A DNA stretch of 64,000 nt from Candidatus Kuenenia stuttgartensis (GTDB taxonomy: Bacteria > Planctomycetota > Planctomycetia > Pirellulales > UBA1268). Below the pieces are notes generated by a model. The model was not told where the DNA came from. It saw nothing but the letters and a program-made list of their open reading frames with translations, and searched no databases. Position 1 is the stretch's first letter; every line of letters begins with the position of its first letter. The stretch is from positions 7,656 to 71,655 of the forward strand of contig CAMDDA010000001.1 in the NCBI GenBank assembly GCA_945890755.1. Direction: 5' to 3'. The position numbers and the translations under genes were made by a program. Positions 43,164-59,647 of the stretch are shown here, in pieces.

Positions 43164-43194
43164 TGAGGCGCGGTTCGGGATGGGGTATCGGCGC

Positions 43195-44019: not shown

Positions 44020-44031
44020 AGGTACCTCGAC

Positions 44032-44484
44032 ATGCTCAACGGTCCCCTGCTCCACCCCGACATTCTCCGAATCCTCGCCCGCTCGGGGCACCACTCGAAG
44101 GTGCTGATCGCCGACGGCAATTATCCCGCCGCCAACAAGCGGGGCCCCCGGGCGGAGCTCGTGTCGCTCCAACTCGTGCCCGGCGTGCCCACCGTCGCAC
44201 AGGTGTTGGAGGCGATCCTCGGCGCCGTGCGGATCGACGAGGTGAACACGATGGGCGTGGATCGCACCGACTCCTACGCCGCCGCCACGCCGGGCGACCC
44301 ACCCGTGTGGGCCGACTACCGGCGGATTCTCGCGGCCGCGGAGTCGCCGTGCGAGCTTCTGCCGATCGTGAAGTGGGACTTCTACGCCGCCGTCGCCTCC
44401 GACGACCACGTGCTCACGATCCAGACCGCCGACACCCAGCCCTGGGCCAACCTCCTTCTCTCCCTCGGCTGCAGGACGTTTTGA
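44032..44484 (+). CDS. fucU: RbsD/FucU-family mutarotase (L-fucose mutarotase-like)
   Basis: 150 aa. HPDILRILARSGHHSKVLIADGNYP matches the RbsD/FucU active-site block. Confidence 0.7.
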   Translation: MLNGPLLHPDILRILARSGHHSKVLIADGNYPAANKRGPRAELVSLQLVPGVPTVAQVLEAILGAVRIDEVNTMGVDRTDSYAAATPGDPPVWADYRRILAAAESPCELLPIVKWDFYAAVASDDHVLTIQTADTQPWANLLLSLGCRTF

Positions 44485-44487
44485 ACC

Positions 44488-45420
44488 ATGCAGACACGCC
44501 CGCTCGGCTCCACCGGCCTCCAGGTTCCGATCCTCTCCTTCGGCGCGAGCTCGCTCGGCGCCGAGTTTCGCTCGATCACGCTCGAGGAGGCCGTCGCCAG
44601 TGTGCACGCGGCGGTCGAATGCGGCCTGAACCTGATCGACACGAGCCCCTTCTACGGCCGCGGCATGAGCGAGGTGCTGCTCGGCGTGGCGCTTGCCATA
44701 CCTCGGGATACGTACCTGCTGTGCACGAAGCTCGGCCGCTACGACCTGGGCCACTTCGATTTCTCGGCCCGGCGGGTGGCCGAGAGCATCGACGTGTCGC
44801 TGCATCGGCTGCGGACCGACCATCTCGACATCGTGCTCTGTCACGACATCGAGTTCGTACCCATGCAGCAGATCGTGGATGAGACGCTGCCGGCGCTCGA
44901 GCGGGCCCGGCAGGCGGGCAAGCTGCGGTTCATCGGGTTCAGCGGGTATCCGCAGAAGATTTTCCGGTACATCTGCGACCAGGCCCGTGTCGACTGCGTG
45001 CTCAACTACAACCAATACACGCTGCAGAATACGCGGTTCGCCGACGAGACGATTCCGTATCTCAAGGCCAAGGGTGTCGGCGTGATGAATGCCGGGCCGT
45101 TCAGTGCGCGGCTGCTCACCGACGCCCCGCTGCCGGCCTGGCTCAAGGAACCGGAGAGCGTGAAGCAGGCGGCGCGGCAGGCGGCGGATCTCTGCCGGGC
45201 TCGCGGCAGTTCGATCGCGAAGCTGGCGCTGCAGTTCGCGATCGCCAATCCCGACATCGCCACCACGGTGGCCGGCAGCGCGAATCCCGCCAACGTGCGG
45301 GCCTGGGCCGCCTGGGCCGCCGAGCCGATCGACCTGGATCTCGTTCGCGATGTGCAGGCGATCTTCGCTCCGGTGAGGAATGTCGGGCATGTGGAAGGTT
45401 TGCCGGAGAACAACCATTGA
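44488..45420 (+). CDS. aldo/keto reductase (aldose 1-dehydrogenase-like)
   Basis: LGSTGLQVPILSFGASSLG, IDTSPFYGRGMSE, CHDIEF. Starts 3 nt after the fucU-like stop. Confidence 0.8.
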   Translation: MQTRPLGSTGLQVPILSFGASSLGAEFRSITLEEAVASVHAAVECGLNLIDTSPFYGRGMSEVLLGVALAIPRDTYLLCTKLGRYDLGHFDFSARRVAESIDVSLHRLRTDHLDIVLCHDIEFVPMQQIVDETLPALERARQAGKLRFIGFSGYPQKIFRYICDQARVDCVLNYNQYTLQNTRFADETIPYLKAKGVGVMNAGPFSARLLTDAPLPAWLKEPESVKQAARQAADLCRARGSSIAKLALQFAIANPDIATTVAGSANPANVRAWAAWAAEPIDLDLVRDVQAIFAPVRNVGHVEGLPENNH

Positions 45421-45450
45421 GAAGCGAGGAATCGGGTCATGCTTCAGGCC

Positions 45451-45730
45451 CATGAAGCCCTCAGCGCCAGCAAGGGGATTTGCCGTGCGGACATGGAAGC
45501 CCTGAGCGCCAGCGAGGGGATCGTTTGGGTGGGCCGGCTCGGGAGCGGCAACTGTCTCGTCGCGGGACCTCGAAGACTCGGTCCACATGCTCCTCGAGCA
45601 GTCGCCGACTCCCTCGCCTCCTCGGATGGCTCGACGCAAAAAAGCCCTGAGCGCAAGCGAGGGGATAGTGCCGAGAACAGCGGTAACATCGAAGACTCGG
45701 TCCACATGCTCCTCAAGCTCGCCTCCTGTT
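45451..45730. repeat. mosaic of B-type half elements (x3) and C-type repeats (x2) inside the sugar cluster
   Basis: AAGCCCT(G/C)AGCGC(C/A)AGC(G/A)AGGGGAT occurs at about 45455, 45497 and 45642. C units are at 45562-45625 and 45688-45728 (TCGAAGACTCGGTCCACATGCTCCTC). Confidence 0.88.
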
Positions 45731-45765
45731 ACCGCTTCGCCTCGTGTGATGGGTAGGGTAGATCG

Positions 45766-46614
45766 ATGCACATTGACTCACATCAGCACTTGTGGCGGTA
45801 TACGCAGGCGGAGTATCCGTGGATCGGCGCCGGCATGGAGCGGATCGCGCGGGACTTTCTGCCGGGTGATCTGGCAGGGGTGGCGCAGTCGCAGGGCATC
45901 GGCGGCAGTGTGGCCGTGCAGGCGCGGCAGTCGCTGGCGGAGAGTCGCTGGCTCTTGGAGCTGGCCGACGCCGATCCGTTCGTGCGGGGCGTGGTGGGCT
46001 GGGTCGATCTGCAGAGTCCCGACGTCGTGTGGCAACTCGAACCACTCGCGGCGCATCCGCGGTTCGTGGGCGTGCGGCACGTCGTGCAGGACGAGCCCGA
46101 TCCGCGGTTCCTGCTCGGCGAGGCGTTCGTCCGCGGGCTCGAGCAGCTCCGGCGGTTCGATCTCACCTACGATCTCCTGCTCTATCCCGAGCAGCTGCCC
46201 GCGGCGGTCGAGCTTGTGGGTCTGCTGCCCGAACAGCCGTTCGTGCTCGACCACCTGGCGAAGCCGAGGATCGCGGCGGGGGGTGCGTGGGATGGCTTTG
46301 CCGGCTGGCGGCGGAACATCGAATCCCTCGCGGCACACGGCAACGTCACGTGCAAGGTGTCGGGTATGGTGACCGAGGCGGCGTGGCGGGGCTGGAAACC
46401 GGCCGACTTCGTGCCCTGCCTCGACGTCGTGCTCGCGGCCTTCGGCCCCGAGCGGCTCATGTTCGGCAGCGATTGGCCCGTGTGCCTCGTGGCGGCCGAG
46501 TACGCCGACGTGGTGGGGATCGTGCGGGACTATTTCAGTCAGGCGGCGGCCGGTGAGCAGGCACAGATCTTCGGCGACACTGCCACCCGGTTTTACGGAC
46601 TCACAGAGGAGTGA
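45766..46614 (+). CDS. amidohydrolase-2 family lactonase (L-fucono-1,5-lactonase-like)
   Basis: MHIDSHQHLWRY..YPWI metal-binding start, DLTYDLL and VLDHLAKP blocks. Confidence 0.65.
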   Translation: MHIDSHQHLWRYTQAEYPWIGAGMERIARDFLPGDLAGVAQSQGIGGSVAVQARQSLAESRWLLELADADPFVRGVVGWVDLQSPDVVWQLEPLAAHPRFVGVRHVVQDEPDPRFLLGEAFVRGLEQLRRFDLTYDLLLYPEQLPAAVELVGLLPEQPFVLDHLAKPRIAAGGAWDGFAGWRRNIESLAAHGNVTCKVSGMVTEAAWRGWKPADFVPCLDVVLAAFGPERLMFGSDWPVCLVAAEYADVVGIVRDYFSQAAAGEQAQIFGDTATRFYGLTEE

Positions 46615-46617
46615 CCC

Positions 46618-47649
46618 ATGCAGGCCCTATTGCTCGAACAGCCCAAGGCGTTTCGGTTCATCGACATCCCCGAGCCGCCGGCGCCGGCCGCAGGCGAGGC
46701 CGTGGTGCGGGTGCACGCCGTGGGCATCTGCGGCACCGACTACGGTGGCTATCTCGGGAAGATGCCGTTCTTCAGCTACCCGCGGATTCCGGGGCACGAA
46801 CTCGGCGTCGAGGTGGTGGCCGTCGGACCGGACGTCACGAACGTGAAGGTCGGCGACCGCTGTTGCGTCGAGCCCTACATCAACTGCCAGGAGTGCCCGT
46901 CGTGCCGCCGCGGGCTTACCAACTGCTGCGAGCATCATCAGACGCTCGGCGTGCACTGCGACGGCGGCCTGCGGCCCCTGTTCACGGTGCCGGCCCGCAA
47001 GCTTCATCCGTCGCCCCGGCTCTCGCATGCCCAAAACGCCCTGGTGGAGACGCTCGCCATCGGCTGCCATGCAGTCGATCGCGGTGCTCCCGGGCCGAGC
47101 GACACGGTGCTCGTGATCGGCGCCGGTCCGATCGGCCTCTCGGTCGTGGAGTTCGCGAAGCTCGCGGCAGGTCGCGTGATCGTGATGGACATGACCGAGT
47201 CACGCCTCGCATTCGTTCGCGAGCGGATGGGCGTGGCTGACACGCTCCTGGCGACCGGCACCGCCGCCGACGAAGCCGCCGTGGGCAAACTGACTGGTGG
47301 ACGGATGGCCGACGTGGTGGTCGATGCCACCGGGAGTGCCGCCAGCATGGCCGGGGCCCTGAATTTCTGCTCGTTCGGCGGCCGGCTCGTCTACGTGGGG
47401 ATCACGCAGGCCGATCTCGTGTTTCCGCACGCGCCGGTGATGCACCGCCGGGAACTCACGCTCTTGGCCAGCCGCAACGCCCTCTCCCGCGACTTCGGGC
47501 GGATCATCGGCCTCATCGAGGCGGGCACGATCGACACCCGGCCCTGGATCACCCACCACGTGCCGTTCGGCGACACGATCACGGCGTTTCCGGGCCTCAT
47601 GGAGCCGGCCGCCGGCACGCTCAAGGCCGTGATCGACTTGCCGGTGTGA
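46618..47649 (+). CDS. zinc-dependent medium-chain alcohol/sugar dehydrogenase
   Basis: GICGTDY, GHELGVEVV, structural Zn Cys cluster CQECPSCRRGLTNCC, and Rossmann VIGAGPIG. Confidence 0.82.
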   Translation: MQALLLEQPKAFRFIDIPEPPAPAAGEAVVRVHAVGICGTDYGGYLGKMPFFSYPRIPGHELGVEVVAVGPDVTNVKVGDRCCVEPYINCQECPSCRRGLTNCCEHHQTLGVHCDGGLRPLFTVPARKLHPSPRLSHAQNALVETLAIGCHAVDRGAPGPSDTVLVIGAGPIGLSVVEFAKLAAGRVIVMDMTESRLAFVRERMGVADTLLATGTAADEAAVGKLTGGRMADVVVDATGSAASMAGALNFCSFGGRLVYVGITQADLVFPHAPVMHRRELTLLASRNALSRDFGRIIGLIEAGTIDTRPWITHHVPFGDTITAFPGLMEPAAGTLKAVIDLPV

Positions 47650-47654
47650 CCGGG

Positions 47655-49643
47655 CTACGAACCCGTCGGCTCGTCTGTCTTGGGCTTCTCCTCGACGTAG
47701 CCCTTGGGCATCGGGAAGGCCCGGGCCGGGTCGAGGCCGGCAGCCGTGGCCTGCTCGGCGAGCGAGTCCTTGAGCTTGGGCCAGGCCCGGAGCTTGAGTT
47801 CGTCGGGCGCCCAGGCCCAGATCCGGGCCCGCATCAGCGTCGGACTCTTACCCTGCTTCATCATAAGTTCAAAACTTGCATCCACGAGTTCGGGGAACGA
47901 GCCGATGTCTACCTGCTTTTGCACGCGGATCTTTGTCGGGTCGCTGACGGAGTATTTCTTGTCGTAGACCTTGTAGGCCATCCGCAGGAACCGGTTGAAG
48001 ACGTCCATCCGGCCCTGGGCGAGCCCGTCCACGAGCGCCCGGTTCAGCATGCCGTCCACGAACTGCCGGGTGTTGTTGAGGTCGAGCTTCATCACCTCGC
48101 CGAGCCTGAGCGTCACGAACGTCTGGAGCGACTCACGGTAGATCGGCTGGTCGCCCATCCCCTGTTCCTGGGCCAGTTTCACCAGTTTCTGGAAGCACTC
48201 GTTCGCCTTGGGCTCGTCGCCGTAGACGTAGGCCATGATCGTGGCCTCGTTTAGAAACCTTTCCCAGCCCTTCATGAGATCGTCGACCTCGGCCCGGCCC
48301 CAATACTGCGTCGTCACGCCCGCCTCAGACTGGATCGTGGCAATCGCCTCGGTGAGGGCGGCTTCATAGGCCGGGATGAAGCGTGGGTCGGGCAGCAGAT
48401 CGATCCGGTCGGAGACGGCGTCGTAGTTGATTCGGCCGGTTCGCATCAGCTCGGCAATCATGTTGAGCCGGCGGCGGATCACAAGCAATTCGTTGCGGCC
48501 CTCGCGATTGCGGCTCTCGAGTGATTTCGCGTAGCCCTCTTCCATCCAGTAGATGCCCTGGGCACTCGGGTGCCGCCAATCCATGGGCCCGTATTTTTCC
48601 ATCAGCGCGACCATCTTTTTCGGATCCATCCGGTAGCGATCGAGTAACACCCGCTTCTGCAGGTGTGGGATCAGGAGTTCGAAGCAGGGCGTGCCGAGTT
48701 CTGGGGTGTTCTGCAGCGTGCCGACGAGCGGCTTGTTGGTTCCCTCGGGAACACCGCGGCCCGTCATCACGGCGGCGTCGCCGGATGCGTTCACCATAAC
48801 GACCAGGCCAAGCATCCTGAGTAAGTCTTCATTGGGCTGGGCGCCGAGGTTCCGGATCGTGTCGAGCACTGGTTGAATCTCAGGATGTGCAGCGACCAAT
48901 TCCTCCAGAGTGTCGAGGGCGTTGGCAACCCTCTCGAATGCTTGCACCACTTCCACTGCTGAGCGGCCGTAATTCTTGTCGCCGAGCACCTCCTGCATGT
49001 CGCTCACGAGCCGCTGCTTCAAAAACCAGTGCTCGCGGTCCCGGTCGCCTCCCACCTTGTCCATCAGGATCCAGCCGAGTTCCTCGTAGAGCTTGGGCGC
49101 GTTGGGATTGAGCGGAATTCCTTTCGACCGCAACATTTCGATCCCGCGACTCACCCAACCCCAGCGGTCGAGTGGCTCCTCCGCCATTACGGAGATGTTG
49201 TAGGCCATGTTGATCGCCTGGAAGCCCCAGACGTTCACGAAGTGGGGCTGCAGCGACGTGATCCACTCGGCGAGCGTCTGGGCCTCGAAATACTGTCCCT
49301 TGGCTTGGAGCTCGTCGGCCCGGATCCAGAGCACGTCGGTGGCTAGGCCGCGGAATGTGCCGAGCGCAGCCGTCGCGAGGGCCACGTGCGGCGGCATCCC
49401 CTGCGTACCCTCGACCGCCATCACGAGTTGCAGGTCGGTCCGCTGCCTGCCGATCGACTTGAGCAGAAAGCCGGCCCCAATGAGGCAGCAGATGATGATT
49501 CCGCCGCAAATTGCTTCGACGATCCAGTCGCGGCTGCCGATCGGCTGGGCGGCCGTCGGCGTGCCTGGATCGTGTTCCAGCCCGTCGCGAGATCGGGCGC
49601 TAGCGGTGCTTGGACGACGGGGCTGGGCGATGGCGGTGCTCAT
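47655..49643 (-). CDS. membrane-anchored hypothetical protein (662 aa, helical-repeat-like), last gene of the SPFH-ABC operon
   Basis: ATG at 49643 is preceded by GGAGG, 16 nt after the permease stop. One N-terminal TM helix (IVEAICGGIIICCLIGAGFLL). Long ORF with unbiased composition. No family recognised. Confidence 0.6.
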   Translation of the reverse strand: MSTAIAQPRRPSTASARSRDGLEHDPGTPTAAQPIGSRDWIVEAICGGIIICCLIGAGFLLKSIGRQRTDLQLVMAVEGTQGMPPHVALATAALGTFRGLATDVLWIRADELQAKGQYFEAQTLAEWITSLQPHFVNVWGFQAINMAYNISVMAEEPLDRWGWVSRGIEMLRSKGIPLNPNAPKLYEELGWILMDKVGGDRDREHWFLKQRLVSDMQEVLGDKNYGRSAVEVVQAFERVANALDTLEELVAAHPEIQPVLDTIRNLGAQPNEDLLRMLGLVVMVNASGDAAVMTGRGVPEGTNKPLVGTLQNTPELGTPCFELLIPHLQKRVLLDRYRMDPKKMVALMEKYGPMDWRHPSAQGIYWMEEGYAKSLESRNREGRNELLVIRRRLNMIAELMRTGRINYDAVSDRIDLLPDPRFIPAYEAALTEAIATIQSEAGVTTQYWGRAEVDDLMKGWERFLNEATIMAYVYGDEPKANECFQKLVKLAQEQGMGDQPIYRESLQTFVTLRLGEVMKLDLNNTRQFVDGMLNRALVDGLAQGRMDVFNRFLRMAYKVYDKKYSVSDPTKIRVQKQVDIGSFPELVDASFELMMKQGKSPTLMRARIWAWAPDELKLRAWPKLKDSLAEQATAAGLDPARAFPMPKGYVEEKPKTDEPTGS

Positions 49644-49659
49644 GCGGTGCCTCCGGTGA

Positions 49660-51705
49660 TCACGTGTTGGAGCGGACCAGATCCCGCTGCTCGAAACAGA
49701 ACCAGGCGAGGAGGCCGAGCACGACCGGGGCGAGGAGGCCAACGCGGAGGACGCACTCGAGGACGGTCCAGACGCTCACGTTCATGCCGGTCGCGACAGC
49801 CGTGACCGCATCGTAGCGATCGAACGACGGGATCACCTTCACGAATAGCTCGCCGACCACCGCCATGATCACCTTGAAGGCCTCCCAGTACTCTCCCTTT
49901 TTCAAGAAGTCATAGAAGGAATAATATCGAAGTTCAGCCATGTCTCTCACCGTGGCGCTTGCACTGTCCATGCCGGTATAGAGTTCGAGCGAGTCTCCCA
50001 CGAACCCGCTGCCGAAGGCTGAGACAAAAATCATCAAGCTCAGGAGCACGGCCATCGGAAAGCCGAGAAACGTTGCCGACGTTATGGCGACCGCCGCGAT
50101 CATCGCCAGTTTGAGCCAGACGACGAACAAGCACTTCAGATAGTTTTGGCCGAAAGAACCGATCCGCTCGAGGAGTTCGAGCCCCTTGCCGGGTACGAGG
50201 GCGATCGTCGTAGGTCGCGTCGCTCCAGGGAGTACGAGGTTCTTGTTTGCGATCGTCAGCCGCAGCACGCCCTTGTCGTCTATGGCTTCCGTCGGAATGT
50301 CGATCGTGTGCGTGGTTTGTCCGGCAAGGGTGTAGGGGAGGTGTTCGCCATCACGATACGGGAATGGCCTGCCGTTCACCCACAGTGCGAAGCTTACGTC
50401 GGCCCGGTCATAGCCGGATCCCTCGCCGTAGGGCCGGATACGGAAATGCACGATTGGAGACGTCTTTTTGGCGTGCCCGAGGCCGGAGAAGACATACTCG
50501 CTCACCTTATCGGGGGTGATCGTGTGCCATTTGCGAAAGTACTGTTCACGGATGTTCTGTCGGGTGCCTTGCCGATCTCTTGTGAACGCGTCGGGCAAGT
50601 CCTTCTCCAACTCATCGATCACCGTTTCCACTTCCCGCGCGTACGCGTCGCCGCTGGGATGTGTGGGCCGCACACTTTGTCGGGCCGTTAGCACCTGTTC
50701 GTCGACCGCATAGCGGTCGCCCTGGCTCGTGGGCTCGGACAGGGCCAAAAGCCGCGTGAACGAATAGATCCCGATTCCGGCGACGACCACGAGCAGCGCA
50801 TTCACGGCCACGAGGCCGGCCCATTTGCCCAGCAGATACTCAGGGCGGCCGAGCGGCTTGGTGAGCGTCATGTGGATGCGGTTGGAGTCGATGTCACCTG
50901 AGAGGCTGCCGCAGCCGAGAAACACGTTCAGGAGGCCTAGTAGAAGCGTCGTCGAGCCGATTGCCCACGTGAGCAGAAACTGCACCCGGTATTCAAGTCG
51001 CTCGCCTGAGTCGAGCAGCAAGGGGAGGAGTGGCAGCGAGAGCACGAGCAAGATCAGGAGCACGAGCGCCGCCCGCATCCGGATCGCCTCGTCCACCACC
51101 GTACGGGCCACGGCCGCCCAGCCGCTGCCCGAGAGGATCGCTCGCAAGAGCGACAGACCTGCAAGAAATGCCGCGGTGATCGCGACGACGGCGCCGATCG
51201 TGATCGCCGCCGCCGAGAGCCCCTGCCGGGCAAGAAACCAGACGAGGAACCCTGTGCCAGCCAAGCCTCCCACGGCAGTGGCGAGCCAGCGGTGCTGGGG
51301 CGCTGCCTTGAACGCCCGCCAGAAGAGGAGCCCGGGTGCAGCGGCGGCGGCGAGTTGCAGCACGACGCCCAGCGGAAGCGACAGCTTTTGAGCGGCGAGT
51401 TCCGCGAGGCCGCTGCCGCCGGCAAGCAGTGCTGAGAGCAAGGCGGCGCGGGTGGCCGGGCCGACGTCCGTCGCGAGGCGCGACCCAAGCAGCGTCGAAA
51501 CGCCGAAAAACGTCCAGCCGATCGCGGCGACGAGGCCGGCCAGTCGAACGGCCGTGGCGACTGTCGGTGCGGCCTGCGCGTCGAGTAGCCAGCCGGCGGC
51601 CACCGAGGCGGCGATGATCCCGGCGAGCACGCCGGCAAAAAACACCGCCGGCCGCCATGAGCTGCCGCCGTCAAGCGCGCCTGAAGTGTGTCGGTTCGCT
51701 GCCAT
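49660..51705 (-). CDS. large ABC-2-type transporter permease-like membrane protein with extracytoplasmic domain
   Basis: ATG at 51705, 4 nt after the ATPase stop. Multiple N-terminal TM helices. ABC-2 signature ...SNRIHMTLTKPLGRPEYLLGKW. Soluble insert of about 230 aa, then C-terminal TM helices. Confidence 0.6.
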   Translation of the reverse strand: MAANRHTSGALDGGSSWRPAVFFAGVLAGIIAASVAAGWLLDAQAAPTVATAVRLAGLVAAIGWTFFGVSTLLGSRLATDVGPATRAALLSALLAGGSGLAELAAQKLSLPLGVVLQLAAAAAPGLLFWRAFKAAPQHRWLATAVGGLAGTGFLVWFLARQGLSAAAITIGAVVAITAAFLAGLSLLRAILSGSGWAAVARTVVDEAIRMRAALVLLILLVLSLPLLPLLLDSGERLEYRVQFLLTWAIGSTTLLLGLLNVFLGCGSLSGDIDSNRIHMTLTKPLGRPEYLLGKWAGLVAVNALLVVVAGIGIYSFTRLLALSEPTSQGDRYAVDEQVLTARQSVRPTHPSGDAYAREVETVIDELEKDLPDAFTRDRQGTRQNIREQYFRKWHTITPDKVSEYVFSGLGHAKKTSPIVHFRIRPYGEGSGYDRADVSFALWVNGRPFPYRDGEHLPYTLAGQTTHTIDIPTEAIDDKGVLRLTIANKNLVLPGATRPTTIALVPGKGLELLERIGSFGQNYLKCLFVVWLKLAMIAAVAITSATFLGFPMAVLLSLMIFVSAFGSGFVGDSLELYTGMDSASATVRDMAELRYYSFYDFLKKGEYWEAFKVIMAVVGELFVKVIPSFDRYDAVTAVATGMNVSVWTVLECVLRVGLLAPVVLGLLAWFCFEQRDLVRSNT

Positions 51706-51709
51706 CGGT

Positions 51710-52939
51710 TCACCGCCGGGTGAGGGAGGCGAGCACGTCGTCGTCGGGATCGTCGTCGGGACCGGTGTCGGCCTCGACCGCCCGCGGAGCCTGTGCTGGG
51801 TGAGCTGCTCCTGGTGGGGGCGTCGGGCGGGCGACGAGTTCGGCAAGGGTGTCATCTTCACGGGTTGCGGCCGGCGCGGTCGTAGCTGGCGCAGGCTGCG
51901 GGGCGGCAGCCTTGGCGGCGAGCGAGTCCAGGATCTCAACGCCGTCGGCCTCGGTATCGCCGGCCACTTCGGTAGCACCCGCACGGAGGAAGTCGGCGAT
52001 CTGGCCGCCGCTCCGGGCGCCGCTCGTGTGCGTGCCTTCCTTGCGGGCGGTATCCACGATCTCGAGGAAGAGCGATTCGAGCCGCCGCCGCGGCTGTTCG
52101 ACGCTGCGCAGACCGAGGCCCCTCTTGGCGAGCACCGCCTGAATCTCGGCCACCGCATCTGCCGGTAGCCGGTCGGTCTGAAGGTTGGTCAGTTCCTGCT
52201 GCTCGAGCAGTTCGCCACAGGTGCCCTCGGCCCGCACCTTGCCGCCGAACATGATCGCCACGCGTTCGCAAAGGTCTTCGACGTCGGAAAGAAGATGCGT
52301 GCAGAGGAGAATCGTCTTACCCCGCTCGGCAAGCTTCTCGATCACGTCCTTGATCTGCCGCGCGCCCACCGGATCCATGCCACTCGTCGGCTCGTCGAGG
52401 ATCAAAAGCTGCGGGTCGTTGATCAGAGTCTGGGCGAGTCCGACCCGCCGTTGCATGCCTTTGGAAAACTCCCCTACGGGCCGGTGCTCGACCGCCTCGA
52501 GGCCCACCATCTCCAGGAGCTTGCTCACCCGCTCGCGGCGGATCGGTGCGGGAATCCGGAACAGCCGGCCGTAGTAGTCGAGCGTCTCGCGGGCGGAGAG
52601 GAACCGGTAGAGATAGCTTTCCTCCGGCAGGTAGCCGATCTCCTTCTTCGTATCCACGTGGCGGGGCCGCTTGCCCATCACGGCGATCCGGCCGGCCGTC
52701 GGGGTGAGCAGGCCGAGGAGCATCTTGATCGTGGTGCTCTTGCCCGAGCCGTTCGGGCCGAGCAGGCCGCACACCTGCCCGCGGCGAACCTCCAGATCGA
52801 CGCCGTCCACTGCGCGGACCCGCGGTCGCATCCAGAAGTCGCGAAAGATCTTCGTGACCCCGACGCACTTGATGTCCACGGGTCGTGAGTCGTCCGCCTG
52901 AGGAAAATAGGGACGGGAGCTATTTTTCTCTGCAATCAT
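51710..52939 (-). CDS. ABC transporter ATP-binding protein with acidic disordered C-terminal tail
   Basis: Walker A GPNGSGKST, signature FSKGMQRR, Walker B LLILDEPTSG, H-loop CTHLL. The tail of about 130 aa is rich in A/P/D/E. Confidence 0.9.
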   Translation of the reverse strand: MIAEKNSSRPYFPQADDSRPVDIKCVGVTKIFRDFWMRPRVRAVDGVDLEVRRGQVCGLLGPNGSGKSTTIKMLLGLLTPTAGRIAVMGKRPRHVDTKKEIGYLPEESYLYRFLSARETLDYYGRLFRIPAPIRRERVSKLLEMVGLEAVEHRPVGEFSKGMQRRVGLAQTLINDPQLLILDEPTSGMDPVGARQIKDVIEKLAERGKTILLCTHLLSDVEDLCERVAIMFGGKVRAEGTCGELLEQQELTNLQTDRLPADAVAEIQAVLAKRGLGLRSVEQPRRRLESLFLEIVDTARKEGTHTSGARSGGQIADFLRAGATEVAGDTEADGVEILDSLAAKAAAPQPAPATTAPAATREDDTLAELVARPTPPPGAAHPAQAPRAVEADTGPDDDPDDDVLASLTRR

Positions 52940-52987
52940 CGTGCGCTGCCTTCCGTGTGGGAAAAATAGCTCCCGTCCCTATTTTCC
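52902..52987. repeat. perfect 27-bp inverted repeat with 32-nt spacer spanning the SPFH-gene stop and ABC-ATPase start
   Basis: GGAAAATAGGGACGGGAGCTATTTTTC (52902-52928) is the exact reverse complement of 52961-52987. The spacer holds GGAAGG and ATG 52939. The right arm holds stop TAG (52979-52981). Each arm also self-folds (AAAATAG-N9-CTATTTT). Confidence 0.95.
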
Positions 52988-54292
52988 GGTCTGCAGCTGG
53001 CGGGCCCGCTGCATCTCCTTCTGCTCAGTCTTCAGGTTCTTGAGCTGCTCCCGCTGCTTCATCTTCTGGATTTCGGGATCACGATTGAGTTGGAGCTGAA
53101 GCTGGCCCGGGACGGTGTAGAACGTCTCCACGTCGCCGGTGAGGATCTGCTCGCGAGCATCCTCCCACAGCCGTGAGAGAATGATCCGCGGATTTTGCCG
53201 GAACTGCGGCAGGAGTCGCTCGAACATTTCCCGCTCCGATTTCACCCGTTCAACGACCTGGGTGCGATATGTGTTGGCCGCATTGATCACCTTCGCGGCC
53301 TCGCCACCGACCATCGCGCTCTCCACCTTGAGTTCAGCGAACGCCTGGTCGATCTGTGCCTCCGCTTCGGCTGCCTCGGCGTCAGTGCCCGCCTCCACGG
53401 CCTGTTCGTAATTGGTCACGAGGGCCACGAGCTTTTCGGCTGCCTCTCCGGCGGCCTCGGCCAGAATCCGCGTGCGATCCTGCTGGGCCGCCACGATCCG
53501 CTGCGAACGATCGGCCTCGGCGGTGGTCACGTCGTCGAAGCTCTTTACCACGGCCATCGGCGCCGTCACCTGGTCGAGATTGAGCTGGTCGATCTTCAGG
53601 CCCGTCTTCATCTCGTCGAGCCGTCGCTGGGCGATGCCGATCGCGAGCTCGCGGTTCACGACCCCCTTGAGGAAATCTTCAGCGGGCAGTTGCGCCGTCG
53701 CCTGCACGATCCCCTGTTGGATCGCGCACCGCACGATCTCTTCGCCGAGCGCGGGCTTGCCGACGTTGGTGATGTAGTCCTCCGGGTCGGCTACGCGGTA
53801 GGTGAGCGACCAGCGGGCGTGGGCGATGTTGAAGTCGCCCGTGAGGAGCGAGCCGTCCTTGATTGGATTCAGAGGCCTGGCCTGGCCCGACCGGAACGAT
53901 TCCTTCGAATCACCGCCGCCGGTGATCTCGTACCAGAACTCACGGTCGAGATCGATGGTCGTGGGCCGCGTATCAACTTTGATCACCTGCTCGATCGGGA
54001 ACGGCGCCGCGAGATACGTGCCCCGCTCGAGTACCCGCTGCCCGGGTGCGCCCACGTAGTCGCCGAACCGCAGCCGAAGGGCCACTTCGTTGGAGCCCAC
54101 GCTGAACGTGCCGCTCAGGCAGTAGGCCACGAGCAGGCCGAACATGGCGAACTTGAGAATCCCGAAGCTCACCTTGAGAGCCTCGGCGAGCGACTGCTGC
54201 GCCGGATCGAAGACGTCACCCACATCCTCGGCCTGCGCCGGGGGCGGGGCGGACTGCGGCGGGGTGAGTTCGTTGATCGTGGGGTCGCTCAT
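52979..54292 (-). CDS. SPFH/band-7 protein (HflK-like)
   Basis: N-terminal TM helix (FAMFGLLVAYCLSG), an SPFH core (EVALRLRFGDYVG...) and a long coiled-coil C-terminus. Confidence 0.75.
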   Translation of the reverse strand: MSDPTINELTPPQSAPPPAQAEDVGDVFDPAQQSLAEALKVSFGILKFAMFGLLVAYCLSGTFSVGSNEVALRLRFGDYVGAPGQRVLERGTYLAAPFPIEQVIKVDTRPTTIDLDREFWYEITGGGDSKESFRSGQARPLNPIKDGSLLTGDFNIAHARWSLTYRVADPEDYITNVGKPALGEEIVRCAIQQGIVQATAQLPAEDFLKGVVNRELAIGIAQRRLDEMKTGLKIDQLNLDQVTAPMAVVKSFDDVTTAEADRSQRIVAAQQDRTRILAEAAGEAAEKLVALVTNYEQAVEAGTDAEAAEAEAQIDQAFAELKVESAMVGGEAAKVINAANTYRTQVVERVKSEREMFERLLPQFRQNPRIILSRLWEDAREQILTGDVETFYTVPGQLQLQLNRDPEIQKMKQREQLKNLKTEQKEMQRARQLQTGK

Positions 54293-54314
54293 GTGGGCAT
54301 GTATTCCGGGAACG

Positions 54315-55253
54315 TCACTGCGGCAGCGGCCGAGACTGCGGAGCCCGCGGTTGGGCCGGGGCGGCTTGGCCAGGATCGCGGTTGAACCAGTCGAGGATGC
54401 CGAGGCTGTCGGCCGAGAGCACGAACGTCGTATTGTGGTCGAGCATCTTCTTCAGGGCCTCGACCTTGCGGAGGAACACGGCAAAGTCTTCGTTGGCCGC
54501 GAAGCTCTCGTATTCCTTGCTGGCCTCGCGGTCCCCCTTGGAGCGGATCGTCTGGGCCCGCCGCTCGGCGAAGGCGAGGATCCGCTCGCGGGCGCTCTCG
54601 GCCTCGCTACGGATCGCGGAGGCCTGGGCCTGTCCCTCCTGGAGGGCGTTTTCGCTGAGCCGCTCGCGGGTGGTGATCATCGTCTCGAACACCTTCTGCG
54701 TGGTCGATTCGGGGAGCACGATCTTGTAGATCCCCACGCTCTCCACCTTGAGGCCGTAGCCCGACTGGGCGAGCGACTTCTCGAGCGTCGCCTTGGCCTG
54801 GTCCTCGATCTCGGCGAGCTTGATTGCGTTCTTGTCGAGGTTCACCAGCTCGTCGAGCCGGTAGCGGCTGATGAGGCCGCGAATCTCGCGGAGCCGGCTG
54901 GAGAGCTGCCGCTGGGCTTCGGCCGGATCCTTGAGCGTGACGTAGAAGTCGAGCGGGTTCTCGATCCGCCAGGTGAGATACGTCTTCACGATCACGCTCT
55001 TGCCGTCGGCCGTCTGCAGTTCCTCGACGGTGTCTTCGAGCAGCTGCAGCCGCTTCGAGTAGTGCGTCACTTTGTGAATCGGCCACGGAAGGCGGAACTT
55101 GAGCCCCGGATCGGTCTGCACGCTCCCGGCGTCGGCCTTGTCGAACGTCGTGCGGACGGCCACCTGGTCGTACCGCACCTGATAGAGAAACATGTACGAA
55201 AGCAGGGCCGCGGCGATCACCGCGCCCATCAGGATCGTGAAGGAGTTTTTCAT
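54315..55253 (-). CDS. SPFH/band-7 protein (HflC-like)
   Basis: N-terminal TM helix, YQVRYDQVAVRTTFDKA...GLKFRLPWPIHKV...IVKTYLTWRI, and a coiled-coil tail. Confidence 0.8.
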   Translation of the reverse strand: MKNSFTILMGAVIAAALLSYMFLYQVRYDQVAVRTTFDKADAGSVQTDPGLKFRLPWPIHKVTHYSKRLQLLEDTVEELQTADGKSVIVKTYLTWRIENPLDFYVTLKDPAEAQRQLSSRLREIRGLISRYRLDELVNLDKNAIKLAEIEDQAKATLEKSLAQSGYGLKVESVGIYKIVLPESTTQKVFETMITTRERLSENALQEGQAQASAIRSEAESARERILAFAERRAQTIRSKGDREASKEYESFAANEDFAVFLRKVEALKKMLDHNTTFVLSADSLGILDWFNRDPGQAAPAQPRAPQSRPLPQ

Positions 55254-55265
55254 GTCGTTGCCGTT

Positions 55266-57368
55266 CTATTCACCGATGAGCGTGTCGATGGCGTTGGTCG
55301 GGTCGCTGAAGTCGAGGTTGAGCACGGGGAGGTCCCCCTTGTCGCCGGCGATCACCACCTTGCGGCGGTCCACCAACGAGTTGGCGAGCACCTCCAGATA
55401 CTGTTTCGTGCGGAAATAGGCGGGGGCGGCCTGGTAGGCGAGCAGCTGCCCGGCGAATCGCTCCAGGGCCGACCGCTCGCCGATCGTCTTTTTCCAGCGG
55501 TCGGAGCGGGCCTTATGGATGATCTCCGCCGCCTCGCCACGGGCCTCGCCGAGCAGGTCCTCGATCTCAAGCTCCTGCTTGGCGAGCTGCTGGGCGGTGA
55601 GCGGAAGGATCTCGCGGGCCCCGATCTTCGCGGCGGCCTCGGCAGCGGCGGTGCGGGAATCGTCGAGCCGGATGATCGCATCGTTGATCTTGCGACTGCG
55701 GTCCACGGAGCCGGCCACCTTGGCGAGCGTCTTGATCGCGTCCTTGTTGGCCAGCTGCACGAGCGTCTCCCGCTCCTGTTGCGCGCCGATCTGGCGGTGG
55801 AATTCGCGGGCCACCTTGCCCGGCGGCGGCTGGAGCGTCGTCACGCCCACGTCCACGATCTCGAACCCGAGGCCGAGGGCGTCGACGCGGGCCTGGATCC
55901 GCTTCTGCAGTTCCGGCCCCCCTTCCGTGCGGCCCCTGGAGAGCAGTTCCTCGAGCGTCTTGCCGGCAAAATAGGTGCTCGCCTCCTGCTGGGTCACCAG
56001 TTCGATCGATTCGCGGGCCGAGGTCGAGCCCTCGAGAAACTTCACGAGATCGCCGATCCGGTATTGCACGATCACGTCGGCCACGAGCAGCGAGAGCGAG
56101 CTGCCGCTGCCCTCGCCGGTCTCGGAGGCGCAGAGGAAGAACTCGAGGCCCATCTTCGCTGCGTCGTCGTCGCCGCCCGTCCAGAGGAGCCCTTCCCGCT
56201 TCTTCTCAAACCGGCCGAGCTTGTCGCTCGAAATCGTGAGCTGGAGCACCTTGCCTGTCGGGTAGATCTCCGAGGTTTCGAGGGGCCAGGGAGCCTTCAA
56301 GTGCATGCCGGGCCCAAGTGGGCCGCGGGCGAGCGCCCCGAACCGCAGCACCGTGCCTTGCTCGTCGGGGCCGACGATCACGAGCGTGCTCAGGGCGAAC
56401 AGCACGGCCCCGGCGAAGATGGTCAGCGGCGTCACGGCGCGGCCGAGCATCTGATAGAACCAGCTTCGCGAGACTTCGACGCCGAACTGATAGTTGATCA
56501 GTTCGCCCACCACCTGCCCGAGCGACTCAGGCGCCGTGAGCAGGCCGAGGAACCGGCTGTCGAAAGCCGGCCGCGGAATCTCGCCCGGCCGCTTCGGGCG
56601 GTAGGCGGCCAGGAGCGCCGTGAGCAAGATCTCGCCGCCGACCAGGATCATCATCCAGGGCACGAGCCGGGCAAGCCACTCGAAGAACGTCGTCTCCTTG
56701 ACGATCGCCACCGCCGCCGCCCCCGCGAAGAGCAGCGCGGCCACGAGGAACGTGCTCATCAGGTAGCTCGCGCCGCCGCGGAGCAGCTGCCACTCCCGCA
56801 CCCGCGTGTAGCCGCTGATCCAGCGGGCGGCGATAAAGGCCACGAAGGCCACGCCCGCGGTCGCGAACATCAGGCCGACGGGATTGCAGTCCTTGGCGAG
56901 CGACAGGGCGACCCGGTCGGTGCCGAGGCCCGCGGCTCGGTAGAGCATCGCCGCCCCGGCAGCGATCAAATAGATGGCCACGGCAAAGCTCACGGCCGGC
57001 AGGCCGTATGCATAGAGCCGGTCGAGTCGGTTGCGAGCCAGCTGCAGTTCGTCGCTCGTCTCGCCGAAGATCGCGGCGCTGGTCGCATCCTGCGTGGCGA
57101 GCTTCTCGGCGGCCAGCGACTCCGTCCGCTCCACGCGGTGCTGCTGATAGATGATCGCGAGGATGATCCAGATCGGGATGCCGCCGGCGATGTGCCAGGT
57201 GGCGGCCTGGATCGCAGGGCTTTGCGCCCAGGCCCCGATCAGTCCCGTGGCCACGCAGAGCACGATCTGGACGGCGAGCCCGGCAAGGGCGGCTGTCGTC
57301 GCCCGACTGTACGTCAATTCGTCGCGATTCATGCGGTTGATCCTGCCATCCCCATCATGCAGCCGCAT
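55266..57368 (-). CDS. polytopic membrane domain fused to an SPFH/band-7 domain
   Basis: Start ATG 57368 (MRLHDG) or 57332 (MNRDEL). About 330 aa with multiple TM helices, then an SPFH core (VIVGPDEQGTVLRFGALARGPLGPGMHLKAPWPLE...) and a coiled coil. Confidence 0.7.
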   Translation of the reverse strand: MRLHDGDGRINRMNRDELTYSRATTAALAGLAVQIVLCVATGLIGAWAQSPAIQAATWHIAGGIPIWIILAIIYQQHRVERTESLAAEKLATQDATSAAIFGETSDELQLARNRLDRLYAYGLPAVSFAVAIYLIAAGAAMLYRAAGLGTDRVALSLAKDCNPVGLMFATAGVAFVAFIAARWISGYTRVREWQLLRGGASYLMSTFLVAALLFAGAAAVAIVKETTFFEWLARLVPWMMILVGGEILLTALLAAYRPKRPGEIPRPAFDSRFLGLLTAPESLGQVVGELINYQFGVEVSRSWFYQMLGRAVTPLTIFAGAVLFALSTLVIVGPDEQGTVLRFGALARGPLGPGMHLKAPWPLETSEIYPTGKVLQLTISSDKLGRFEKKREGLLWTGGDDDAAKMGLEFFLCASETGEGSGSSLSLLVADVIVQYRIGDLVKFLEGSTSARESIELVTQQEASTYFAGKTLEELLSRGRTEGGPELQKRIQARVDALGLGFEIVDVGVTTLQPPPGKVAREFHRQIGAQQERETLVQLANKDAIKTLAKVAGSVDRSRKINDAIIRLDDSRTAAAEAAAKIGAREILPLTAQQLAKQELEIEDLLGEARGEAAEIIHKARSDRWKKTIGERSALERFAGQLLAYQAAPAYFRTKQYLEVLANSLVDRRKVVIAGDKGDLPVLNLDFSDPTNAIDTLIGE

Positions 57369-57410
57369 ATGAGATTTCGATGAGGGCGATTTACCCGGTA
57401 TCCTGTCTGC

Positions 57411-58394
57411 ATGCCGCCGATTTTCTCCATTGCCCGCAATGCCTTTTTGGAGGCGATTCGCCAGCCGATCTTCATCGTGCTCGTGCTCGTGGGCCTCTTG
57501 GCGATGGTCTGCAACGTCAACCTCGCCGCGTTCACGATGGGGGAGGACGAAAAACTCCTGATCGATCTCTGCCTGAGCACCCTGCTCATCGTAGGCCTCT
57601 TGTTGGCGGCCTTCACAGCCTCGAGTGTGCTCTCCAAGGAGATCGAAAACAAGACGGTACTCACGGTCGTCAGCAAGCCGGTCACGCGGGCCGCCGTGAT
57701 CGTGGGCAAGTTTCTCGGCGTGGCGGGGGCCCTGGGCGTTGGCTACTACATCCTCACGCTCGCCTGCCTCCTGGCGGTGCGACACAAGCCGCAGATGGGG
57801 ATGGGCCGCGGCGAGATCTATGACGGACCCGTGCTCACGTTCAGCCTGCTCTTCGGCCTGCTCGCGCTCCTGACAGCCGGGCTGTTGAACTATCTCTACC
57901 GCCGGCCGTTCCCCTCCACGCTCACCGCCTGCCTCGCCGGCATGCTCACGATCGCCGTCGGGATCTGCTCCATCCTGGCCCGCGACTGGTGGCTGCAGGG
58001 CCCGCTCACCGACTACAACCCGCAGTTGATGTATGCGATCGGGATGGTGTTCCTCGCGATCCTCGTACTCTCGGCGGCGGCGATCGCGGCCTCCACGCGG
58101 GTCAATCAGGTGATCACGCTCCTGATCTGCTGCGGGGTTTTTCTCTTTGGGCTCGTGAGCGAGTTTTTCCTGGGGCGGTCGCTGGCCGAGGGCGCCAGCC
58201 CGCTCGTGCGATTGCTAGCGCCGCTCTACGTCGCGGTGCCGAACCTGCAGGTCTTCTGGGCGGCGGATGCACTCTCGCAGGGGCACGCAATCAGCCCGGA
58301 GTATTTCGCGAGCGTGGCGGCGTATGCGGCCGTGCTGATCACGGCGCTATTGTCACTGGCCGTGCTGCTCTTTCAGCGGCGGGACGTGGGGTGA
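57411..58394 (+). CDS. ABC-2-type transporter permease (no adjacent ATPase on the same strand)
   Basis: Six or more TM helices. Signature SKEIENKTVLTVVSKPVTRAAVIVGKF. Divergent from the SPFH-ABC operon across a 42-nt gap. Confidence 0.65.
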   Translation: MPPIFSIARNAFLEAIRQPIFIVLVLVGLLAMVCNVNLAAFTMGEDEKLLIDLCLSTLLIVGLLLAAFTASSVLSKEIENKTVLTVVSKPVTRAAVIVGKFLGVAGALGVGYYILTLACLLAVRHKPQMGMGRGEIYDGPVLTFSLLFGLLALLTAGLLNYLYRRPFPSTLTACLAGMLTIAVGICSILARDWWLQGPLTDYNPQLMYAIGMVFLAILVLSAAAIAASTRVNQVITLLICCGVFLFGLVSEFFLGRSLAEGASPLVRLLAPLYVAVPNLQVFWAADALSQGHAISPEYFASVAAYAAVLITALLSLAVLLFQRRDVG

Positions 58395-58398
58395 GTCG

Positions 58399-59616
58399 GT
58401 GGCGCAGCCCGCGGTCATGAACGCCGAACTGAGCGTGGCGGGCACGACCGAGTTCGACGTCACGATCCTGATGCCCTGCCTTGACGAGCGGATCACGCTG
58501 CCGGCCTGCATCGACACCGCGGAGGAGGCGGTGCGTCGGCTGGCCGAGCAGGGGCTCTCCGCGGAGATCCTGATTTCCGACAATGGCAGCCTGGATGGCA
58601 GCCAGGCCTATGCCCGCTCGCGGGGCTGCCGCGTCACGGAGTGCCCGACGCGGGGCTACGGGGCGGCGCTCATCCACGGCATCCGCGCGGCCCGCGGCCG
58701 GTTCATCGTGATGGGGGATTCCGACGCCTCGTACGACTTCCGCGAGGGCGTGCCGATGGTGGCGAAACTCACCGAGGGCTACGACCTCTGCATGGGGAAT
58801 CGGTTCACCGGAAGGATCATTCCCGGAGCGATGCCCCCGATGAACCGCTACCTGGGCAACCCCGCGCTCTCGGGCGTGCTCAATCTTTTTTTCCGCTCGG
58901 GCGTCGGCGACGCCCACAGCGGCCTGCGGGCGTTTCGCCGCGATGCGGCCCTCGGCCTGCAGCTCGTCTCGCCGGGGATGGAGTTTGCGAGCGAACTCGT
59001 CGTGAAGGCGGCCCTCAAGGGCCTGAAGATGACGGAGCTGCCGATCACGCTCCATCCCGACGGCCGCGATCGCAAGCCGCACCTGCGGCCCTGGCGGGAC
59101 GGTTGGCGGCATCTGCGGTTTCTGCTCGCGCTCTCGCCGCGCTGGCTATTCATCATTCCGTCGCTGGTGCTCGTCGCAATGGCCACGCTGATCGCTGTCG
59201 TGCTCTTTCAAACGCCTCCTGAGGAGGTCGCCCACTTTGGCCGATTTTGGATCGGCGACCATTGGCTGATCGCGGCTGGTGCGATGTTTCAGCTCGGCAT
59301 CTCGGGCATCACGCTTGGCACCATCGCCCGCGTCTGGGCGACGAAGCGTGGGTTTGTCCGGCGTTCGCAGCGGCTTGAGAGGTGGGTGGGCGCGATCCGC
59401 GACGACAAGGCGGTGCTCGCGGGCGGTGTGCTGACGGCGATCGGCGGTGTCGTGCTGGCGGGCGTTGCGTTCGACTTCCTCCGCGGCGGTTTTGGGCCGG
59501 GCGGCCGAATCCGGGAAATGGTGGTTGGTACATCGCTCGTCGTGGGTGGTATTCAGCTGATCTTTGCGTCGTTCGTGGTTTCACTTATCGACGACGAGTT
59601 GCCACCGCGGGCCTGA
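58399..59616 (+). CDS. family 2 glycosyltransferase with C-terminal membrane domain (polyprenyl-phosphate sugar synthase-like)
   Basis: VTILMPCLDE, ILISDNGSLDGS, GYGAAL, MGDSDASYD (DxD), then four TM helices. The start may be ATG 58417. Confidence 0.8.
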   Translation: MAQPAVMNAELSVAGTTEFDVTILMPCLDERITLPACIDTAEEAVRRLAEQGLSAEILISDNGSLDGSQAYARSRGCRVTECPTRGYGAALIHGIRAARGRFIVMGDSDASYDFREGVPMVAKLTEGYDLCMGNRFTGRIIPGAMPPMNRYLGNPALSGVLNLFFRSGVGDAHSGLRAFRRDAALGLQLVSPGMEFASELVVKAALKGLKMTELPITLHPDGRDRKPHLRPWRDGWRHLRFLLALSPRWLFIIPSLVLVAMATLIAVVLFQTPPEEVAHFGRFWIGDHWLIAAGAMFQLGISGITLGTIARVWATKRGFVRRSQRLERWVGAIRDDKAVLAGGVLTAIGGVVLAGVAFDFLRGGFGPGGRIREMVVGTSLVVGGIQLIFASFVVSLIDDELPPRA

Positions 59617-59647
59617 GAGGCCCATGGGGTCGCGGCGAGACGAATCC

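Follow-up and report, generated by a model that had tools for sequence, protein, structure and literature searches.

What bacterial SPFH assemblies of the HflK/HflC type do beyond controlling the FtsH protease is an open question, and their clients usually come from proteomics. SPFH genes are found in operons of several kinds. SPFH-NfeD operons of the stomatin or flotillin type hold an SPFH gene and a membrane partner in a conserved arrangement (Hinderhofer et al. 2009, PMC2636767), and in Pseudomonas aeruginosa three SPFH genes, PaFlo5, PaFlo6 and PaFlo7, make up one predicted operon with a patchy distribution and no known function (PMC13086221). In Staphylococcus aureus, microdomains of FloA, a flotillin-type scaffold, are functionally tied to the ATPase of the FhuC/Isd ABC system (PMC10147376). 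Here we describe a seven-gene system that extends over positions 47655-58394 of a 64-kb stretch of DNA (hereafter the window) and joins three SPFH genes (P1, P2 and P3, together the trio) to genes for an ABC ATPase (P4), a large ABC-2 permease (P5), a protein of no named family (P6) and a second ABC-2 permease that is divergent from the others (U1).

This locus differs from each of these systems, among which the PaFlo operon and the FloA link are the nearest precedents. No ABC protein or transporter is mentioned for the PaFlo operon (PMC13086221), and the abstract of the FloA study gives no sign of an operon link (PMC10147376), whereas here the link to an ABC machine is fixed in gene order. 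An SPFH-NfeD operon was rejected as a match, as Pfam gave no NfeD hit, no gap exceeds 39 nt, which is too short for such a gene, and the trio is of the HflK/C type. Full-text literature searches returned no description of an SPFH-ABC-2 operon, in agreement with an earlier note on this DNA, which knew of no characterized system with this architecture. A candidate SPFH client, the ABC-2 machine, can be read from an operon across a whole phylum, which gives a defined set of seven proteins.

Layout and conservation of the gene cluster

P1 through P6 follow one another on the minus strand with gaps of 12, 22, 39, 4 and 16 nt (Table 1). The coordinates, domains and gaps that the earlier note had assigned to these six genes were all reproduced by the open reading frame (ORF) list, Pfam, NCBIfam and hydropathy. 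The note had also reported a divergent ABC-2 permease; the permease is present, but its treatment as a mere neighbor outside the unit did not stand, since U1 is a conserved member of the cluster. The 700-aa form of P1 starting at 57368 was not upheld either. Most close homologues are 688 aa long and a conserved non-coding repeat, described below, overlaps the codon at 57368, so the start of P1 is probably Met13 (57332).

A P6-anchored scan of one genome per species gave 80 loci in Planctomycetota-type metagenome-assembled genomes (MAGs) at 46-94% identity. A P1-anchored metagenome scan detected no fewer than 474 relatives, and 80 of its loci were retained. Gene order in the P6-anchored loci, established by tblastn with the window proteins, was U1(-), then P1 P2 P3 P4 P5 P6(+). 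Among the 49 that reach U1 we found 43 complete clusters, four without the trio, two without the trio and the ATPase, and none with a partial trio; gain or loss affects the three SPFH genes together. P2-P6 followed in order in 34 of the 38 P1-anchored loci with at least 7.8 kb of downstream sequence, and U1 adjoined P1 in 58 of the 59 with sufficient upstream sequence; the exceptions in this set are L155, L159 and L160, described below, and L151, in which P6 was undetected. P6 follows P5 in every case. Counted over independent contigs, the order is repeated well over 80 times, so that it is not a product of chance.

The arrangement reaches distant relatives. Loci L082-L085, L087 (Phycisphaerales JB039) and L088 keep the order at 27-63% protein identity; in the first four the P5 homologue is 28-38% identical, and the full seven-gene order is found in L087 and L088, which hold distant members of the P1 N-domain family. 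A Phycisphaeraceae contig (L081) has the ATPase, P5 and P6 only. All three cluster variants have U1, P5 and P6 as their invariant core. An arrangement peculiar to one genome had been named beforehand as a possible refutation, and we found the order kept in both Pirellulales and Phycisphaerales, with proteins 27-60% identical. Neighboring genes overlap among the distant loci, where stop/start overlaps of 1 or 4 nt occur at P2/P3, P3/P4 and P4/P5: the SPFH gene P3 and the ATPase gene share 1 nt in L088, and the ATPase and P5 genes share 4 nt in L083, L084, L087 and L088. Such overlaps are what one would expect if the SPFH and ABC genes were transcribed together, as the earlier note had proposed from the short gaps. 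Promoter and terminator scans of the window gave no hits above those in shuffled sequence.

Since order and overlaps are kept while the flanking genes are otherwise not conserved, we conclude that the linkage is under selection. Inherited synteny with no functional meaning would fit a distribution confined to one phylum, with many of the loci coming from related freshwater MAGs. It sits badly with seven genes that keep order and orientation down to 27-30% identity between variable flanks, with gaps that are tiny or negative, and with the block-wise gain and loss of the trio; we regard it as very improbable. The two modules, the trio and the ABC genes, are genetically fused, and the trio acts as a unit. 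Whether this reflects a dedicated functional and physical partnership of the SPFH trio with the ABC-2 machine is a question on which we put the chances at about even, and this partnership is the reading that we develop below.

The SPFH-less clusters are paralogous to the full ones. They take the form U1, P4 P5 P6 in L035, L039, L041 and L069 and the form U1, P5 P6 in L027 and L043, and at times one MAG contains such a copy beside a full cluster. One locus with P1 at 41% identity, L135, has U1 on the P1 strand, with a heavy-metal P1B ATPase gene, U1 and P1-P6 all co-directional. Fourteen MAG records titled 'Candidatus Kuenenia' or 'Chitinophagaceae' have a P6 that is 46-88% identical to that of Pirellulales, in the same gene order; these labels look wrong, as would follow from mis-binning.

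The SPFH trio and the linked ABC-2 proteins

P1, P2 and P3 all match Band_7 in Pfam (PF01145; E 3e-17, 6e-24 and 7e-18, respectively), and a hydropathy scan gave seven transmembrane (TM) segments in P1, one at the N-terminus of P2 and one in P3. The best NCBIfam matches were hflK for P1 (94 bits against a 159-bit cut-off), TIGR01932 hflC for P2 (E 1.7e-34, 119 bits against 134) and TIGR01933 hflK for P3 (E 7e-34, 117 bits against 159), each of them short of the equivalog cut-off. P2 is alignable to E. coli HflC over residues 8-320, and P1 and P3 to E. coli HflK residues 268-356 and 278-337, which cover SPFH2/coiled-coil and C-terminal regions; every region from which the solved HflK/C assemblies are built is recognizable in the trio. 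These matches and alignments bear out the initial assignments of P1 as a fusion of a polytopic membrane domain with SPFH, of P2 as HflC-like and of P3 as HflK-like. P2 is the best-conserved of the three, at 70-100% identity in Pirellulales-type loci (P1 at or above ~50%) and 33-54% in distant loci. By BLASTP the three proteins detect one another barely or not at all, and P3 did not detect the C-terminal part of P1 (residues 301-700), yet each is kept across the phylum, which argues that they are ancient paralogues, P1 and P3 being K-like and P2 C-like.

The N-terminal 7-TM domain of P1 defines a large family. Searched alone against 1.84 billion representatives, it recovered no fewer than 825 clusters (50% identity level), 311 of them at E<=1e-30; nearly all matches were fusions of 660-750 aa with the domain at residues 1-320, and the fusion architecture is stable over at least 311 of the 50%-identity clusters. 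The named members come from Phycisphaerales, Phycisphaeraceae and unclassified Planctomycetota MAGs, and cluster look-ups returned MAG-derived members only, with no cultured strain. The domain has no Pfam model, and relaxed Pfam scans of the alignment members gave noise. Family invariants are E234, inside TM6, and the sequence YRPxxPGExxRPxFxSR...YQFG in the last cytoplasmic loop before the final TM segment. Counted from the sequence, loops 2, 4 and 6 contain 17 K/R as opposed to 4 on the other side of the membrane, and this skew supports a cytoplasmic N-terminus and a periplasmic SPFH domain, as in HflK. The flanks of the P3 TM segment are ambiguous as to orientation. The extra TM bundles of P1 and P5 gave no sign of a common origin by hhalign (probability 0.3%).

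The trio may simply be the FtsH modulator of this lineage, that is, a planctomycete HflK/HflC that cages FtsH, the ABC link then reflecting co-regulation or ABC proteins that are FtsH clients. The homology of the trio to HflK/HflC over their whole length speaks for this explanation, and so does the occurrence both of ABC modules without the trio and of the trio without this ABC module. Neither the window nor the 1.39 Mb of loci contained an ORF with the Walker A and HExGH motifs expected of ftsH, and the earlier note had used the missing ftsH as an argument. That argument is invalid: in E. coli, too, hflKC is unlinked to ftsH, and the lack of a nearby ftsH is therefore uninformative. What tells against an FtsH cage is that all three proteins fall below the hflK/hflC equivalog cut-offs, that there are three paralogues and not two, one of them with a conserved 7-TM domain (we know of no description of such a domain for HflK or HflC), and that about 90% of loci, across two classes, keep the trio tightly packed with the ABC genes. 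On balance we consider a trio devoted to FtsH rather unlikely.

P4 matches ABC_tran (1e-33, Pfam) and, below cut-offs, the drrA and GldA subfamilies of NCBIfam; its closest solved sequences are the nucleotide-binding domains (NBDs) of ABCA3/4/7/1 (~1e-66 to 1e-59) and NosF (3e-47). Its catalytic motifs are intact (Walker A GPNGSGKST, Walker B and catalytic Glu LLILDEPT, H-loop His), and it is 56-69% identical in distant loci. The last 134 residues contain 24 D/E and 14 K/R, a net-acidic composition that confirms the acidic tail of about 130 aa noticed earlier. U1 matches ABC2_membrane_2 (33.9 bits against a cut-off of 27.2, Pfam), and P5 falls just short of it (26.7 bits), with P5 homologues that carry PF12679. 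P5 has about 12 TM segments and, by hydropathy, a soluble insert at residues 317-522. Its AlphaFold2 model (pLDDT 81, pTM 0.75) shows a variable 6-TM N-terminal bundle, a NosY-like core and a probably periplasmic domain in which the insert is modelled as a beta-sandwich, in line with the large external domain proposed at the outset. The TM region in part matches NosY (7znq_Y; 25% identity, Foldseek prob 1.0); no other ABC-transporter permease appears among the 50 fold matches listed for P5, and NosY is also the only PDB sequence match of the P5 profile, at the TLTKPL.R.EYLLGKW loop. The insert lies on the membrane side opposite the NBD-coupling loop of P5, which supports its facing the periplasm. 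Its fold resembles the CBM36, BcsB and PorU beta-sandwiches, with Foldseek prob 0.99-1.0 but weak E values of 0.05-0.1. U1 shares with P5 the NosY-type loop motif E..K....SKP..R.....GK, so both should be able to dock an NBD, and the membrane core is most likely a heterodimer of the two permeases beneath a P4 dimer.

P6 matched nothing in Pfam, NCBIfam or PDB sequence searches, relaxed Pfam scans of its alignment members gave noise, and PDB sequence and profile searches with P6 and with the P1 N-domain returned nothing significant. It has one clear TM segment and an all-alpha body, so its description as a TM-anchored helical protein without a recognizable family was upheld. The family comprises at least 482 clusters at 90% identity, and the motifs ALG.FRG..LW.RA, LQPRFP, NMAYNIS, ERW.W and DWRHP..(A/Q)..YW are invariant or nearly so down to 25% identity. 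The most conserved stretch is a weakly hydrophobic helix after the TM segment (residues 85-114), which includes the first of these motifs and an invariant Arg98. Foldseek matches of the P6 model were to TPR scaffolds, all weak. The P1 N-domain and P6 are two sizeable, undescribed families without a Pfam or NCBIfam model, and they are defined here.

Returning to the partnership, we propose that the cluster encodes a single envelope machine made up of two modules. The first would be a type-V (ABC-2, NosY-like) ABC machine made of P4, U1, P5 and an obligatory partner, P6. In the second, to judge by the solved HflK/C assemblies, P1, P2 and P3 would co-assemble as a hetero-oligomeric ring or cage at the periplasmic face of the cytoplasmic membrane, with P2 alternating with P1 and P3 as in an HflK/C-like hetero-oligomer. 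Within a membrane patch, this assembly would enclose the ABC machine or serve as its scaffold, and the machine, like NosFY, may spend ATP on moving periplasmic domains and not on pumping solute. Both the co-assembly of the trio and its enclosure of the ABC machine are inferred.

Several observations weigh against a dedicated partnership. In 6 of the 49 loci the ABC module has no adjacent trio, so a dedicated scaffold in cis is not strictly needed. The trio also occurs alone, in L155, a contig of 428 kb where neither U1 nor an ABC module lies within 10 kb of it, and in L159 and L160 COG0523 and ZnuABC genes take the place of P4-P6 behind U1 and the trio; the trio is thus not exclusive to this ABC machine. 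As for P6, its all-helical AlphaFold2 model is of low confidence (pLDDT 68, pTM 0.39), and its TM segment is followed by a more basic flank than the one that precedes it, which leaves its topology ambiguous. The neighbors of the L155 trio encode a thioredoxin-like protein, ALAD, a sodium:solute symporter, PlsX and FabH.

Intergenic repeat, neighboring genes and the process served

The divergent U1/P1 intergenic region of the window contains a direct repeat, ATGAG-N6-ATGAG, in an 11-bp register. Written as RTGAG-N6-RTGAG it has its sole match in the window here, overlapping the previously assigned P1 start codon at 57368. This pattern was picked post hoc and then re-tested on new loci. In the first set it was present in 27 of 43 intergenic regions of full clusters and in 0 of 6 of SPFH-less ones, at a density of 2.99/kb as opposed to 0.027/kb elsewhere; among the new loci it was present in 29 of 65 regions, at 2.23/kb as opposed to 0.054/kb. 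These densities amount to a 40- to 110-fold enrichment in the divergent promoter region (U1/P1 regions of L004-L146). The repeat is confined to Pirellulales-type lineages, with P1 at or above ~50% identity, and absent where P1 is at or below ~41%, and its orientation flips between clades. We predict that the repeat is probably a regulator-binding site, and the 11-bp register suggests that it may be bound by a winged-helix response regulator, perhaps one of the OmpR/PhoB type.

Conserved next to the cluster is a heavy-metal P1B ATPase gene (TIGR01525, 569 bits), placed tail-to-tail with U1 and often abutting or overlapping the U1 3' end. Full clusters have it in 34 of 39 cases and SPFH-less ones in none of 5 (Fisher p = 2e-4), and it was found in 32 of 46 P1-anchored loci, distant ones included (L084, L088, L135, L164). 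This adjacency supports a role in envelope metal trafficking or homeostasis, in which a NosFY-like mechanotransducer would drive the P5 insert and P6 together with the P1B ATPase. COG0523 and ZnuABC behind the trio in L159 and L160 point the same way, as does the standing of NosY as the sole ABC permease among the fold matches and the sole PDB match of the P5 profile. In this one marine lineage (L159, L160) the genes behind U1 and the trio encode a COG0523 (CobW) GTPase, ZnuA, a ZnuC-like ATPase and a permease of the ABC-3 type that resembles ZnuB. The P1B ATPase gene, however, is convergent and so not co-transcribed, and an overlap of 3' ends might by itself keep the two genes together, shared function or not; this window lacks the gene; NosD- and NosL-like partners were looked for in vain; P5 has no conserved Cys/His/Met cluster and P6 a single invariant His; and the Znu link comes from one lineage, COG0523/Znu homologues being found in L159 and L160 only among the loci. 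We judge metal trafficking, a modest lead drawn from gene context, to be unlikely as the process served. The P1B ATPase is ~660 aa long with a CPC or CPS TM motif, its recorded domains are only E1-E2_ATPase and Hydrolase, with no HMA, and its TM6 reads HxxSS; Cu(I) pumps have MxxSS in TM6.

The earlier note had pointed to a glycosylation cluster next to these genes and to an envelope role for the system. In the window, U1, GT2, GT1 and TPR genes form an operon-like run, with a 4-nt gap and then overlaps. We found this U1-GT2-GT1-TPR arrangement only in the nearest relatives, L091 (98% identity) and, in part, L093; it is gone at L134 (91%) and beyond, where the P1B ATPase usually adjoins instead, and the glycosylation genes were rejected as a conserved partner. 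The tight run headed by U1 is one of the points in favor of an ABC-2 machine that exports or assembles an envelope glycan or lipid, with the SPFH proteins organizing a lipid microdomain there. Others are the likeness of the P5 insert to CBM36 and BcsB sandwiches (prob ~1, E 0.05-0.1), the similarity of P4 to the NBDs of ABCA lipid exporters, and a ManC-like gene convergent to P6 in SPFH-less paralogues. The fold matches, however, are weak and generic, the glycosylation genes are as narrowly distributed as described, and the likeness to ABCA probably reflects the broad ABC-2 ATPase group (best NCBIfam drrA and GldA) and not a lipid substrate. Glycan or lipid export is to our mind quite improbable, and the support for it, being fold-based, is weaker than that for metal handling. 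The comparative evidence thus leans weakly to envelope metal handling and not to glycan export.

SPFH-less paralogues have neither the direct repeat nor the P1B ATPase neighbor. Their flanks include ManC-like, MetK and SecA genes in L041, MetK and SecA in L039 and MetK in L069, which are housekeeping genes and say little.

A more specific form of the partnership, less likely than not, may be put forward tentatively. The cluster could encode a periplasm-facing nano-compartment, the first SPFH cage with a non-protease client in its own operon, in which the 7-TM domain would serve as wall or adaptor and a NosY-type mechanotransducer with P6 would be enclosed, maybe handling metal or another envelope cargo together with the P1B ATPase in a secluded patch of membrane. 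The suggestion that P1 E234 and P6 Arg98 are contact points within the membrane of such a compartment is pure speculation.

The surroundings of the cluster in the window are those of a chromosome. The GC content is ~68%, the nearest relatives are uncultured freshwater Pirellulales, and housekeeping genes (gyrB, class II ribonucleotide reductase and a sigma-70 factor) and sugar-acid catabolism genes are present, so the window is taken to be chromosomal. No Rfam families or tRNAs were found in it. Only 5 nt separate the P6 stop from the end of a convergent gene for a zinc-type alcohol dehydrogenase (47649-47655), and there is therefore no space for a terminator between the two. The downstream block resembles a sugar catabolism set.

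Table 1. Coordinates of the cluster genes, their sub-regions and other features; positions are those of the window unless a locus is named
Feature	Position	Strand	Description
P1	55266-57332	-	688-aa 7-TM and SPFH fusion (700 aa if start 57368)
P1 N-domain	56379-57332		7-TM domain
P1 SPFH domain	55737-56378		Band_7/SPFH
P1 C-terminal part	55311-55598		HflK-like coiled-coil and C-terminus
P2	54315-55253	-	312-aa HflC-like SPFH protein
P3	52979-54292	-	437-aa HflK-like SPFH protein
P4	51710-52939	-	409-aa ABC ATPase
P4 NBD	~52166-52807		
P4 tail	~51713-52042		Ala/Pro/Thr-rich, net-acidic
P5	49660-51705	-	681-aa large ABC-2 permease
P5 beta-sandwich	50155-50724		probably periplasmic domain
P6	47655-49643	-	662-aa protein, unnamed family
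P6 TM segment	49467-49523		
P6 conserved helix	49302-49391		residues 85-114
P6 motif	48546-48581		DWRHP..(A/Q)..YW
U1	57411-58394	+	327-aa ABC-2 permease, ~8 hydrophobic segments, divergent from P1
Direct repeat	57369-57384	+	ATGAG-N6-ATGAG, 11-bp register; reads ATGAGATTTCGATGAG
U1-GT2-GT1-TPR run	57411-62949		
Downstream block	43180-47649		FucU/RbsD, aldo-keto reductase, amidohydrolase_2, xylose-isomerase-like TIM barrel
P1B ATPase examples	L084:1197-3191, L088:6945-8921		plus 66 further loci
Trio alone	L155:10001-14729		
U1 and trio with COG0523/Znu genes	L159:8616-19072		
Co-directional P1B ATPase, U1, P1-P6	L135:6901-19398		
Mis-labelled MAG loci			L004, L008, L015, L016, L032, L035, L041, L042, L050, L059, L062, L066, L072, L076

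Comparison with known systems

The envelope of Planctomycetota is unusual and its machinery largely unknown, which makes the cluster relevant there, and the cluster leads, unexpectedly, to heavy-metal transport genes. All of the evidence is comparative, yet with it the question of SPFH clients becomes directly testable. Two further candidates were rejected. For the GldAFG transporter, the GldA score was 199 bits against a cut-off of 403, and Pfam gave no GldG-type match in P5 or P6. For anti-phage defence, PADLOC gave a generic ABC-ATPase similarity for P4 and nothing for the other six proteins.

Two described systems share parts with the cluster. NosDFYL (PDB 7znq, 7o0y) is alike in its ABC2_membrane_2/NosY permease type, in the coupling-loop motif and in NosF, which is among the closest solved ATPases of P4; the likeness may extend to action through periplasmic domains. 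No NosD beta-helix, NosL or nosZ was found in the cluster or among the annotated neighbors of seven distant loci. The cluster differs further in having two different permeases, one of them with a 6-TM extension and a beta-sandwich insert, and in P6, which is unrelated to Nos proteins. E. coli HflK/HflC-FtsH (PDB 7vhp, 7wi3, 9cz1) shares with the trio adjacent K-like and C-like SPFH genes and an N-terminal anchor followed by alignable SPFH, coiled-coil and C-terminal regions, the SPFH domain being probably periplasmic. The planctomycete cluster is set apart from it by three paralogues, one of them 7-TM, by scores below the equivalog level, and by an operon shared with an ABC-2 machine.

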